DNA from: an uncultured delta proteobacterium
GTDB lineage: Bacteria; Desulfobacterota; Binatia; Bin18
Length of the DNA stretch: 64,000 bases
Assembly (NCBI GenBank): GCA_963733195.1
Contig: CAVTCR010000059.1
Coordinates: 196,848-260,847 of the forward strand
Direction of reading: 5' to 3'
Part shown: piece after piece, positions 60,568 through 64,000 of the stretch
Layout of the letters: each line of letters opens with the position of its first letter
How positions within the stretch are numbered: the stretch's first letter is position 1
Notes under the pieces: model-generated
Told to the model about the DNA's origin: nothing
The model's database searches: none
What the model saw: only the letters and a program-made list of their open reading frames with translations
Translations under genes and position numbers: made by a program

Positions 60568-61078
60568 AGCAAAAGAGGCAAGGGCGAAAAGGGGAAATGG
60601 CAAAAAGGCCTGCTCACTCTGTTCGCTCTGATGTAGGGCGGGCAGAGCGCCATATGCGCCAAGATATCGTTTTCCGTGAGTGAGAGACAAACAGTTAGGC
60701 AGCCGCACGCAAGGGAGCAAGGGGGGTAGACTGGAGCCACGTCGCGACTGCTGGCGGCAGCACTTGGAGCTTGCGGGGCCGGGGGCGTTCGGCCAGCGCG
60801 CGCAAGACGGCCTGCCAATCCCACGCCTGCCAGCGAACTGTATCCAAGACGGTGTCTTGGATTTCCTTGGCGAGCAGTTTCCAGATCCGCCACCACGTCG
60901 CCACCCGGGTCGTGAGCATCTGGGGCCACTCATTGCCGAGCCGGGCGACCGCACGGCGCTCGACCAACACAGCAAAGAGGAGTTTGCCGGTCCGATACCC
61001 CATCGCCAGCGGGGCGCCGCGCTTGGCCCGTACGTGGGCGGCGGCAAGCAAGCTCTTGTAGCGTTTCAGCACGAGTTC

Positions 61079-62982
61079 GATGTGGCAGTCGCAACCCATA
61101 AAACGATTGACCTGGTAGTCCAAACACAGGTGAAGAAGTTGCAGCGGAATACGCGAGGATAATCCGGTTTCGCCGTTCTTGGGCTCTTCCAGCAAAATAA
61201 TGCGATGGAGGAGCTCGATGAAACAGCTGCACATTCGGCACCAAACCTCGGTCGCGGATCCGCTTCGGCAGGAACGGCTGCGGCGCGCACTCGCGATCGT
61301 AATGGAGTATCAGGAGGATCCTCATGCAAGTGGCACTCTACGCCCGAGTCTCAACCCCCAATCAACAACAGGAAGGAACGATTGCCAGTCAGATTCACTC
61401 GCTCCATCTGTACATTCGCCAACAGGGATGGAGTCTGTTACCCACGCATGAGTATATAGATGAAGGGGTCAGTGGAGCGCGGTTGGATCGCCCGGCCTTG
61501 GATCGCCTTCGCGACTGTGCCCAACGCGGAGAGTTTGATGCAGTGGTGGTGTTATCGCCGGATCGCTTAGCCCGCAACTATGCCCATCAGTGGTTACTGA
61601 TCGAAGAGTTTGAGAAACTCCAAGTGCAGTGGATTTTTTTGCAGAATCCCTTTGGCGATACGCCGCAAGGAAAATTGTTGACGCAAATGCAAGGGATGAT
61701 GGCGGAATACGAACGCGCGCAGATTCATGAACGTACACGACGGGGACGACTGGAGAAAGCACGCCGTGGGGAGTTCATCCCGTGGGCGTTTAGTTGTTAT
61801 GGGTATCGGTATTTACCCAAGCGTCATGGGTGCGCTCCGCAAGTCACGATTAAGCTGGAAGAAGCAGAAGTCGTCCGACAGCTCTATCGGGATCTGGTGG
61901 AGGAACAATTGAGCTGTCGGCAACTGACCAAACGGCTCAATGAGGCCCGGACTCCTACCCCGTCAGGAAAAAACCCGGTGTGGCATCCCGCAACGGTGAG
62001 AAACATTCTCACCAACCGCGTCTATACGGGCCAGGCCCGCTACAATTATCGGCAACCCGTGTTGCCGAAATATCGCAAGACCGCAGAGACGCAACTCTCC
62101 TATCTCAAAACTGGCCGCAGCTACCGTCCTCCCCAGGAGTGGGTGTGGAGTGAGGCACCGGCCATTATTCCTGTGGAGCTGTTCGAGAAAGCCCAACTGC
62201 AATTGCATCGTAATGCGGAAGTCGCTCGTAAGATGTATCAACCGTCTTCCCGGCGCTACTTGTTGCGCACGTTGGTCAAATGTGGGGAGTGTGGGTTAGG
62301 GATGGCGGCGGCTCATCAACGGAGTGTCTGTAAGAAGTATGACTATCTCTATTATGAGTGTAAGGGACACGCGCCGCTGACCTGCGGACGTGAGACCAAA
62401 TGTCGCTCCCGCCGCGTACGCGCGGATCGTTTGGATGCGATCGTATGGAGATCACTCTGTGAGTTACTTACAACGCCAACGCTTCTGCCGCAGCTCCACC
62501 AGAGCTGGGCACAGACCAAACACCACGATCTGACCACGCTCACCGCCCAACACGAACAACTCCTGCAGCGCAAGCGCCGCGTCGAGCGGCAAAGTGAACG
62601 CTTGCTGGATGCGTATCAAACAGAAACCATCACGCTTAGTGAATTGCAACTCCGCCGCCAGAAACTGACCACCGAACTCCAACACCTGGATCGCGAACTC
62701 CAACAGCTTACTCACACGCAGCAACAAACCCTCCATTGGCACGACGTCATCACCCACGTCGACCACTTTCGTCACCTCTTAGGCGAGAACCTCGATCGCC
62801 TCGCCTTTGCCGATCGGCAAATCGTTGCCCAATGTCTGATCAAAAAAATCGTCGTTACGGGCGAACAAGTCGATATCTCTTATATCCTCCCTTTTGACCA
62901 AGCCCCTCAGGTATATAATAGTAGCGATCAACAACCTGAGGGGACGCCAGGCTATTTTTACCGGTTGCGACTGGCAGACCTC
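61079..62982 (+). mobile_element. Minimal large-serine-recombinase integrative element (1904 bp)
   Basis: 25-bp inverted arms at 61079-61103 and 62956-62980, a TC core at both junctions, and removal restores the IS4 reading frame. Confidence 0.9.
61218..61451 (+). CDS. Small ORF overlapping the recombinase start
   Basis: GGAGGAG RBS, then MKQLHIRHQTSVADPLRQERLRRALAIVMEY (77 aa); the only other ORF in the element. Confidence 0.55.
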   Translation: MKQLHIRHQTSVADPLRQERLRRALAIVMEYQEDPHASGTLRPSLNPQSTTGRNDCQSDSLAPSVHSPTGMESVTHA

Positions 62983-63264
62983 CACTTGCCATCGGATCCG
63001 ATACAACTCCAGAATGGTGGCGGCACTGAGCTCAGTCGGGGGCACGGTGGTCAACACCAACCCCCACTCGCTCAAGAAAAGCCTTTGTGCCCGCAGCCTG
63101 CGTCCGCGGCGGCTGGCTTGACGTTTGGCTCGGCGCCGGGTCCGATTGCACTGCTGCTCGTTCAGATGCAGCGCCTGAATCCACACCGGCAGCGCCTGCC
63201 CCTTCTTCTCCTCTCGCACCTGCAGAGCAAAGCTCACGCGCGACTGTTTCCCTGCGACCTGTAA
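61324..63264 (+). CDS. Large serine recombinase (resolvase + recombinase + zinc-ribbon/coiled-coil)
   Basis: YARVST catalytic Ser, DEGVSGA..RPAL, DRLAR, CGECG...YYEC...C and a coiled coil. The last 93 aa derive from the antisense strand of IS4. Confidence 0.95.
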   Translation: MQVALYARVSTPNQQQEGTIASQIHSLHLYIRQQGWSLLPTHEYIDEGVSGARLDRPALDRLRDCAQRGEFDAVVVLSPDRLARNYAHQWLLIEEFEKLQVQWIFLQNPFGDTPQGKLLTQMQGMMAEYERAQIHERTRRGRLEKARRGEFIPWAFSCYGYRYLPKRHGCAPQVTIKLEEAEVVRQLYRDLVEEQLSCRQLTKRLNEARTPTPSGKNPVWHPATVRNILTNRVYTGQARYNYRQPVLPKYRKTAETQLSYLKTGRSYRPPQEWVWSEAPAIIPVELFEKAQLQLHRNAEVARKMYQPSSRRYLLRTLVKCGECGLGMAAAHQRSVCKKYDYLYYECKGHAPLTCGRETKCRSRRVRADRLDAIVWRSLCELLTTPTLLPQLHQSWAQTKHHDLTTLTAQHEQLLQRKRRVERQSERLLDAYQTETITLSELQLRRQKLTTELQHLDRELQQLTHTQQQTLHWHDVITHVDHFRHLLGENLDRLAFADRQIVAQCLIKKIVVTGEQVDISYILPFDQAPQVYNSSDQQPEGTPGYFYRLRLADLHLPSDPIQLQNGGGTELSRGHGGQHQPPLAQEKPLCPQPASAAAGLTFGSAPGPIALLLVQMQRLNPHRQRLPLLLLSHLQSKAHARLFPCDL

Positions 63265-64000
63265 AGCCGCGACCAGATCAAACGACTCCCCCGTCCCGGT
63301 CCACAGGCGCAAGTATGGGGAGTCATCCGTACGACCACGTGCGCCCCGCTGGCACGCGTGGCGAGCAGGGCCGGGGCTTTGGCAAAATTGCGATCCCCTC
63401 ACACCCCCATGCCGGGGCCCCACGTAAAGCGCGTCAAACTCTCACCCGTATGCACGTCACTCACGTGGAGTTCGTGTACCCGCTGGGCTACCGGATCGTC
63501 CGCCACGTGCCAGCGCTAATCCGTGCCCTGCGCGCCGGGCCCACTGATCTGCGAGCCGTCACAAATCACGAGCTGCCACGGCGCGTCCGTCCGTTCCGGC
63601 AGGGCCCGCACGGGCAACAACTTGCCCAGCAGCCGCTCCAGCCACGGCGGACAGGCCGCCAACCGCTGCCGCACCGCTTCATCGGTCAGCGGTTTCCCAC
63701 TGCCCGTACACACGCCGGCAATCTCCCGCAGGGATAAGTCCCCGAGGCTGTAGAGGAAGACCAGATACAAGAGGTCGTCGGGCGACTCCAGGACTCGCGC
63801 CCGCGTGAAGGCCTGACCTTCGCGCGCCAGCTGCGCGCTCTCGGGGGGTAACTCTTGTCGGAGGGCTTCATACTTGCTAGCAACATCGTGAAGTGGCATC
63901 CGGTTCTCCTTTCGAGTGGGGTGCTCGGTGAGCGCCGTTTTGCCACTTCTTTCACTATGTTACACCTACCTTGGCGCATATGGGGCTCTGCCCACCCTTT

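Follow-up and report, generated by a model that had tools for sequence, protein, structure and literature searches.

Introduction

Two kinds of described elements come closest to the one analyzed here: a phage whose attachment site lies inside its integrase gene, and insertion sequences (ISs) that borrow a stop codon from the DNA around them. In the Myxococcus phage Mx8, the attP core lies within int, and integration gives this gene a new 3' end and the integrase IntP a changed C-terminus; the altered integrase stays active, with changed properties (available part of PMC6070905, citing Tojo 1996 and Magrini 1999). IS870, ISMt1, IS1547, IS1110, and IS1239 have no stop codon inside the element and take one from flanking DNA, and their C-terminus is site-dependent (available part of PMC13630536). 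We report here on a mobile insert that encodes a large serine recombinase (LSR) and lies near the right end of the window, by which we mean the whole 64,000-nucleotide stretch that was analyzed (contig CAVTCR010000059.1 of assembly GCA_963733195.1, from an uncultured delta proteobacterium). Its recombinase gene has no stop codon inside the insert, attP is predicted to lie within that gene, and a reading frame that would complete the gene in a circular form is conserved at the opposite end of the element.

Other systems are relevant for comparison. In Tn4451/Tn4453 and Tn5397, a single LSR (TnpX and TndX, respectively) forms a circle from the element upon excision and integrates it at targets centered on GA, without target duplication; the ends of the element resemble the targets. 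These transposons are 6-21 kb long, carry cargo, and have a recombinase gene that ends inside the element; the circle junction of Tn4451 makes a promoter. IS607 is a small IS that usually carries TnpB and whose TnpA is a small serine recombinase with a MerR-like DNA-binding domain at its N-terminus. SpoIVCA and XisF are LSRs that, upon excision, precisely restore an interrupted gene; the skin and fdxN elements concerned are large and fixed at one host locus. In SSV1, attP lies inside int, and integration splits the gene and thereby inactivates the encoded tyrosine recombinase. The ISs of the IS870 type encode transposases other than LSRs. A literature search, which covered journals outside subscription, found no paper on LSR mini-elements targeting transposase or reverse-transcriptase (RT) genes, nor on an LSR gene that spans attP.

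Results

A recombinase gene that runs off the end of a 1904-bp insert

The open reading frame (ORF) at 61324-63264 (+) encodes 646 amino acids (aa), and its sole stop codon is at its end, according to the ORF listing. Its Pfam matches were Resolvase (PF00239, residues 3-150, E 7.8e-37), Recombinase (PF07508, residues 179-296, E 9.1e-20), and Zn_ribbon_recom (PF13408, residues 313-378, E 2.4e-08); this ORF therefore codes for an LSR. DUF4368 was absent among the matches, which comprised these three families at E up to 0.01. From the N-terminus on, the catalytic domain is followed by Recombinase and then by the zinc ribbon, and R8, V9, and S10, together with the other columns of the catalytic domain, are invariant in 53 aligned sequences. 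No phage genes, no cargo, and no TnpB were found in the 1.9-kb element, and the recombinase is the only enzyme that it encodes.

The insert occupies 61079..62982 (+), 1904 bp including one crossover copy. From left to right, it contains the P' arm of attP with the tail codons described below, a spacer, a small ORF that precedes the recombinase gene, and the first 553 codons of that gene. The element-encoded part of the gene (61324..62982, +, codons 1-553) is without a stop. The ORF leaves the insert at GAC CTC (62977-62982) and continues for another 93 codons on the strand antisense to a DDE_Tnp_1 transposase gene; this integrated-state tail (62983..63264, +, 93 codons plus stop) has its content set by the target. 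The initial annotation of this DNA had proposed that the ORF lacks a stop inside the element and crosses the right junction at GAC CTC, and that it gains 93 aa from antisense IS4 DNA to reach 646 aa in total. The ORF listing agrees with both statements, and the DDE_Tnp_1 match agrees with the second.

The element is 1901-1909 bp long across 13 loci, and the 1904-bp insert is present in a single copy in the source genome. The assembly has 87 contigs and 6.9 Mb in total; the window lies at the end of its contig C59, which stops 2 bp beyond the IS that hosts the insert. Recombinase matches with E up to 1e-50 were found in 5 of the 101 genomes searched, source genome included. A second, distant LSR homolog in the source genome (L025, G000:C1:69524-70372; 41% identity over residues 2-281) lies outside the element family by DNA.

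Element boundaries and an attP site inside the gene

Using blastn against related loci, DNA homology of the element to its relatives was found to begin at 61079 and to end at 62978-82. Positions 1-1900 of the element are covered in the alignments of eight loci (including one duplicate record), and pairwise whole-element DNA identity to the window copy is 67-90%. In 13/13 two-ended elements (window included), the two bases outside the left end are the same as the two bases four positions past the right-end ...CTGGCA. This junction dinucleotide is TC in ten elements, and GA, AC, and GT in one each. One TC at each boundary, without target duplication, is what would be expected of a serine recombinase with a 2-bp staggered cut.

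The left crossover copy in the window is the TC at 61077..61078 (+), which on the minus strand is the GA of codon GAA (61078-61076), the Glu codon of the transposase. The P arm of attP and the right crossover TC (62981-82) together span 62956..62982 (+), a segment that also encodes ...FYRLRLADL. The inverted-repeat arms, 61083-61103 and 62956-62976, are 86% complementary, and joining 62982 to 61079 gives the symmetric site GGTTGCGACTG-N7-TC-N7-CAGTCGCAACC, that is, attP. Since attP lies within the recombinase ORF, integration replaces all sequence after residue 553. Excising the 1904 bp in silico rebuilds the minus-strand ELYRIRWQV[E]LVLKRYK, with the crossover on the GA of the Glu codon; the rebuilt transposase motif is ELYRIRWQVELVLKRYK, and an uninterrupted natural relative in another genome, WYRIRWQVELVFKRFK, has the same spacing. 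The insert ends given by the initial annotation (61079 and 62982) were borne out by the limits of homology, the same flanking TC, and the rebuilt motif. Its proposal that attP lies inside the recombinase ORF, so that integration swaps the C-terminus, was likewise borne out by the symmetric site that the joined ends form.

Two other models of the junction were rejected. If the crossover is set at GA (61079-80 / 62977-78), the unit has 1898 bp; each rebuilt transposase then has two codons too many (E-V-E), its motif spacing is lost, and the attP arms differ in length (14 and 16 nt). With the TC model, the arms are equal and the rebuilt gene matches the natural one. A target-site duplication of about 5 bp was ruled out, as the flanking pentamers are unlike (TTCGA and CTCCA in the window).

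A conserved frame at the left end would complete the enzyme in the circle

Once 62982 is joined to 61079, and only then, the recombinase frame is in phase with 61079..61162 (+), which consists of the 27 codons DVAVATHKTIDLVVQTQVKKLQRNTRG and a TAA stop (61160-62). By frame continuation, the circle-form protein would have 553 + 27 = 580 aa, as the initial annotation had stated. The first ~25 nt of this circle-form tail double as the P' arm of attP. The circle frame is open for at least 27 codons in 22/22 aligned left ends; the stop comes directly behind codon 27 in 10 loci, and the other 12 have 31-85 codons before it. The consensus of the 22 left ends is D-V-[AI]-[VI]-[AT]-T-H-K-x-I-D-L-V-[VF]-x-T-Q-V-x-K-L-x-R, with about 25 codons kept at the protein level. 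Nucleotide diversity within the tail is 4.73, 3.81, and 7.38 for the first, second, and third codon positions, respectively.

The ratio of nonsynonymous to synonymous polymorphism (pN/pS) is 0.46 for the tail in the circle frame, with stops in 0/22 sequences. The other two plus-strand frames gave 0.87 and 1.36, with stops in 22/22 and 21/22, and the three minus-strand frames gave 0.81, 0.55, and 1.50, with stops in 3, 3, and 12 of the 22. For codons 9-25, beyond a normal att arm, pN/pS is 0.44, a value reached by 8/1000 shuffles. As controls, we used the spacer 3' of the tail (0.83-1.07 in all frames), the N-terminus of the recombinase (0.23), its last 16 codons (0.33), and its linker (codons -46 to -17; 0.51). 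Column shuffles of the tail alignment reached a pN/pS of 0.46 in 6/1000 cases, were stop-free in all sequences in 21/1000, and did both in 0/1000, counts that are not probabilities because the left-end sequences are related. The low pN/pS, the lack of stops, and the rarity of such shuffles indicate therefore that the tail resembles a weakly constrained coding sequence, like the C-terminal linker of the recombinase.

The stop codon is missing across the family

A homolog search of 5.8 billion proteins returned 4381 matches at E up to 0.001 among 8000 scored candidates, and the best 120 were compared. They are 69-95% identical to the recombinase over its first 552 residues and range in total length from 527 to 927 aa. 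The anchor ...FYRLRLA, with divergence right behind it, is present in 114/120; the remaining six do not have the anchor at their end, and some of them look truncated or frame-shifted. Beyond the anchor, the tails vary from copy to copy. They start with x[L/F] in 92 of the 114 anchored homologs, since such a start is dictated by the TC crossover, and 64/114 match [LF]xxP, which is the antisense of W..[IV]E. A total length of 557 aa is the most frequent (12/114). Most of the best 120 homologs are on metagenome contigs of 2-3 kb, as is typical for repeats. A 93-codon open run in GC-rich antisense DNA is unremarkable alone, but the family-wide lack of a stop exceeds chance.

The same layout in a distant clade found in group II intron RT genes

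A group of LSRs with about 35% identity to the window recombinase (L052-L105, L016-L018) has a conserved part that ends abruptly at ...LQHC-G/R-R-R, encoded by TTGCAACATTGT plus an arm; beyond it, the sequences diverge. These LSRs belong to similar elements of ~2 kb (for example L063:2110-2808 and L058:2703-3475), whose ORF runs off the right end and whose ends are again palindromic. The flanks are RT genes of group II introns (RVT_1 in 7/7 tested, GIIM in four, and RVT_N in one). The insertion splits RVT_1 at profile position ~122-127 (PQGG..SP region), a fixed site that is used in both orientations. Ten loci of this clade have a recognizable left end; in eight of them, the frame there that continues the recombinase ORF has 68-79 codons without a stop. 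Thirteen of its columns are invariant, for example N-V-A-K ... I-x-R ... Y-G-x-x-F-x-G. Judged by sequence, this clade appears to be an independent repeat of the same layout, with end sequences unlike those of the main clade. At L058, L068, L073, L099, and L100, the stop of the left-end frame overlaps an apparent ribosome-binding site (RBS) and the ATG of the next small gene. If the elements of this clade are circular, their ORFs would form a closed ring of translationally coupled genes.

The main insertion site is the catalytic Glu codon of DDE transposases

The host IS is IS4-like and extends over 60635..63998 (-); it would be ~1460 bp long without the insert. Its terminal inverted repeats (60635-60666 and 63967-63998) have 32-nt arms that are 91% complementary. 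DDE_Tnp_1 (PF01609) matched 62779..63423 (-) with E 7.1e-06. The upstream piece of the interrupted transposase gene (62983..63423, -) ends with ...ELYRIRWQV before the split Glu codon, while the downstream piece (60695..61078, -) starts with E-LVLKRYKSLL... and has a stop codon. We take the motif at the insertion site to be the Y(2)R(3)E(6)K signature of IS4-type DDE transposases, in which Glu is the third catalytic residue.

Rebuilt targets contain Y..R...E, with the Glu codon on the crossover, in 11/13 elements. The target flanks are clearly distinct transposases, for example WYALRWRI[E]TFHKILK, AYALRWQV[E]LFFRWLK, and LYGARFQI[E]FLFRDSK. The insertion sites of L040 (AC) and L042 (GT) do not have the motif. 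The ten TC elements are antisense to the transposase, and L035, the only GA element, lies in sense at the same motif, as predicted for a serine recombinase, whose orientation is set by the asymmetric central dinucleotide. L041 probably also has a GA dinucleotide in the opposite orientation, like L035. This logic of the integration site, whereby cargo-free recombinase elements home to catalytic-motif codons of other mobile elements, was absent from the initial annotation.

A second copy of the host IS was not found in the source genome, and a match to the host transposase was detected in 1/100 related genomes. The host transposase seems to be broken apart from the insertion as well: the N-terminal ORF at 63516..63899 (-) and the DDE-bearing ORF at 62779..63423 (-) are in different frames. 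Within the broken region of the host transposase (62983-63899, -), a run X1 contig contains one additional C after position 63315. In the window copy, none of the three minus-strand frames has a stop across the left end; one ORF on this strand (60695..61234) begins within the left end of the element and continues, in phase, into the piece that encodes the transposase C-terminus.

Predicted structure, the small upstream ORF, and expression signals

An AlphaFold2 run with 53 sequences gave a model of the recombinase with a mean predicted local distance difference test (pLDDT) score of 69.5. The model has the catalytic, recombinase, and zinc-ribbon/coiled-coil parts, with long helices at 403-432 and 438-492 and strands at 506-521 at the end. 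Residues 522-552 lie outside this confident fold, and the predicted swap would therefore affect a C-terminal appendage and not a core domain.

The small upstream ORF (61207..61451, +) has an RBS, GGAGG, at 61207-61211 and an ATG at 61218, encodes 77 aa, and overlaps the start of the recombinase gene in another frame. It is found in 22/22 left ends, with 65-80 aa and an ATG that is always 106 nt before the recombinase ATG; its pN/pS is 0.42, with stops in 0/22. Its product could be a regulator, a translational coupler or throttle, or a directionality factor, and its role could bear on how far the tail alone acts as a switch. Pfam gave no family for this ORF or for the ORF that combines flank and tail.

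Between 60600 and 63400, neither promoter-like sites (2, with 1.2 expected from shuffles) nor terminator-like sites (3, with 2.8 expected) were above chance. One of the promoter-like sites (62894-62922, +; TTGACC, 17 nt, AATAGT) is located within the recombinase gene, at its 3' end, and is directed outward over the right end of the element. Transcription from it in a circular form would enter the tail and continue through the small ORF and the recombinase gene.

Discussion

How firmly each part of the reading can be held

In the reading that we favor, the recombinase gene is circularly split, and a tail kept by selection completes it in the circle only. From the sequences compared here, the architecture itself is very probably as described, with attP inside the ORF, a C-terminus that depends on the state of the element at the DNA level, and a target in the Glu codon. 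It is also probable, from the pattern of substitutions, that the circle-form tail is translated and under selection. For the architecture and the selected tail taken jointly, we still lean toward acceptance. That the swap of tails acts as a functional switch is doubtful. As far as the DNA is concerned, the initial annotation was right in its claim that the isoforms encoded by the circular and integrated states differ. The conservation of the tail across relatives, which had been set beforehand as a check on that claim, was found: the frame is open in 22/22 left ends, ~25 codons are kept, and the distant clade has the same layout.

A number of observations weigh against this reading. Regarding the tail itself, a pN/pS of 0.46 denotes weak constraint, the left ends from which it was obtained are related and short, the first eight tail codons also serve as a DNA-binding arm, and the minus-strand frame that shares the wobble positions is low as well (0.55, stops in 3/22). 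In the distant clade, pN/pS for the whole tail is 0.66, with nucleotide identities down to 42%, and its conserved terminus, GGxxHV plus stop, probably represents the RBS and start codon of the following gene rather than a peptide motif. Regarding the protein, the pLDDT of residues 522-552 is below 50, outside the canonical fold, except for a short strand at 545-550 (FYRLRL). The integrated tails of the 114 anchored homologs are 2 to ~375 aa long, without a sign that length matters, and the element is single copy in its genome.

The circular form was also not found. Contigs of four soil and mine-drainage runs, compared with 60600-63400, gave no circle junction, tandem copy, or empty site, and the junction pattern had 0 matches in viral contigs and was present in 0/401 genomes of the phylum, although assemblies and contigs detect rare circles poorly, which limits all of these circle-junction negatives. 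The run contigs gave short pieces, none of which skips the insert; their loose ends at 61076 and 62980-85 are other insertion contexts. None of the 114 homolog tails resembles the circle-form tail, and the tail peptide is in no protein longer than 280 aa of the 5.8-billion-protein set.

Alternative explanations

One alternative is an explanation by compaction only. In that case, attP would overlap the 3' end of the gene to save space, the conservation of the left end would reflect needs of the DNA (the P' arm, plus signals that serve the upstream ORF and the recombinase gene), and the isoforms would be equivalent, the tail merely supplying a stop in the circle. A low-confidence segment at 522-552 outside the canonical fold, integrated tails that are highly variable in length and content, and the lack of a circle-form product among the 114 homolog tails or in the 5.8-billion-protein set are all in line with compaction. 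So are IS870, ISMt1, IS1547, IS1110, and IS1239, which borrow flanking stops without a proven switch (available part of PMC13630536). However, the tail varies chiefly at third codon positions, where the changes are synonymous, and the circle frame is free of stops in 22/22 loci. The pN/pS of 0.44 is moreover found for codons 9-25, past the ~25-bp arm, against ~1 in the adjoining spacer, and a left-end frame conserved at the protein level recurs in a clade with a different end sequence. We consider compaction alone to be possible but improbable.

Alternatively, the insert could be a domesticated intervening element, whose excision on a cue restores the transposase and thus switches the host IS, as SpoIVCA and XisF do with sigK and fdxN. 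Excision would indeed rebuild the Glu codon and the reading frame exactly, and the insertion is at a codon indispensable to the transposase. However, close relatives sit in several transposase families, which points to spread between unrelated ISs, 2/13 are in non-transposase sites (L040 and L042), the sister clade is in intron RT genes, most homologs are on repeat-like metagenome contigs of 2-3 kb, and the transposase of the host IS copy also appears frame-broken upstream. A parasite of mobile elements therefore fits better than a regulator, and we regard domestication as very unlikely.

Least probable of all is a use of the left-end frame in the integrated state, as a minus-strand reading or as a fusion started in the left flank: although the minus-strand frame sharing the wobble positions has a pN/pS of 0.55 and all three minus-strand frames are open at the left end in the window, with 60695..61234 in phase with the C-terminal piece of the transposase, the former frame has stops in 3/22, the frame in phase with the transposase piece has a pN/pS of 0.81, the tail frame has no conserved start (the GTG at codon 2 is GTT in the TGTTATA subfamily), and no conserved flank-started fusion is possible because the left flanks differ between loci.

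A possible life cycle and its significance

Returning to the reading of a circularly split gene with a selected tail, we propose that the element excises to a circle and re-integrates in DDE transposase genes, at the conserved site that codes for Y(2)R(3)E(6)K. The complete 580-aa enzyme would be encoded in the circle only, its last ~25 residues being kept by selection. Each integrated copy would make residues 1-553 plus a target-dependent extension, of 93 aa here and often of 4-5 aa elsewhere. The conserved tail may then mark the circle-state enzyme, and favor the attP x attB reaction or stabilize the protein. The truncated enzyme of the integrated state, perhaps with the product of the small upstream ORF, may handle or limit excision.

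More broadly, we tentatively suggest that these elements might form a large, undescribed superfamily of cargo-free LSR mini-elements that parasitize mobile elements. Its clades would home to the DDE Glu codon or to RT motifs of group II introns, each with a gene that is circularly split and a full enzyme, with its selected tail, in the circle only. The physical state of the element would then set the isoform and the direction of recombination without a classical directionality factor.

The choice between integration and excision is central to the use of LSRs in genome engineering, and a C-terminus that the element rewrites by itself, if true, would be a natural, self-contained state sensor. 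The recombinases of this family home to a motif that is conserved in coding sequences, either Y(2)R(3)E(6)K or that of the RT, and not to one locus; this offers them many safe mobile landing sites and disables the enzyme of the host element. The family bears on the competition among mobile elements in soil bacteria. As for annotation, hundreds of database recombinases of 553-927 aa carry C-terminal extensions that are meaningless.

Comparison with known systems

Like the TnpX/TndX type, this family inserts at many sites with a short shared motif (Y..R...E in 11/13, elsewhere in 2/13) and with varied flanking genes. Unlike that type, the element is 1904 bp long, has no cargo, and carries an ORF that would be completed across the joined ends. 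According to the available part of an LSR survey (10.1101/2021.11.05.467528), the multi-targeting LSR clade commonly has DUF4368; the recombinase of the 1904-bp element differs in this respect, since Pfam gave no DUF4368. That part of the survey names neither transposase genes as targets nor an attP within the recombinase gene. It also differs from IS607 in having an N-terminal catalytic domain followed by Recombinase and zinc-ribbon domains, the 77-aa upstream ORF being the only other conserved ORF. Unlike the skin and fdxN elements, the elements of this family sit in varied targets. Integration inactivates SSV1 Int, whereas the recombinase described here would be re-tailed.

With regard to the two closest precedents, no conserved circle-only tail is reported for the IS870 type in the available part of PMC13630536, whereas a conserved tail is found here at the opposite end of the element. 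The initial annotation had drawn an analogy to phages with attP in a regulatory gene. The analogy is real, but in the known case, Mx8, the enzyme is a tyrosine integrase. As in Mx8, the crossover of the 1904-bp element is inside the recombinase ORF, and integration alters the C-terminus. Mx8, however, is a 50-kb phage with a tyrosine recombinase and an attB in its host, while the present system is an LSR encoded by a 1.9-kb cargo-free element whose target is a gene of another mobile element.

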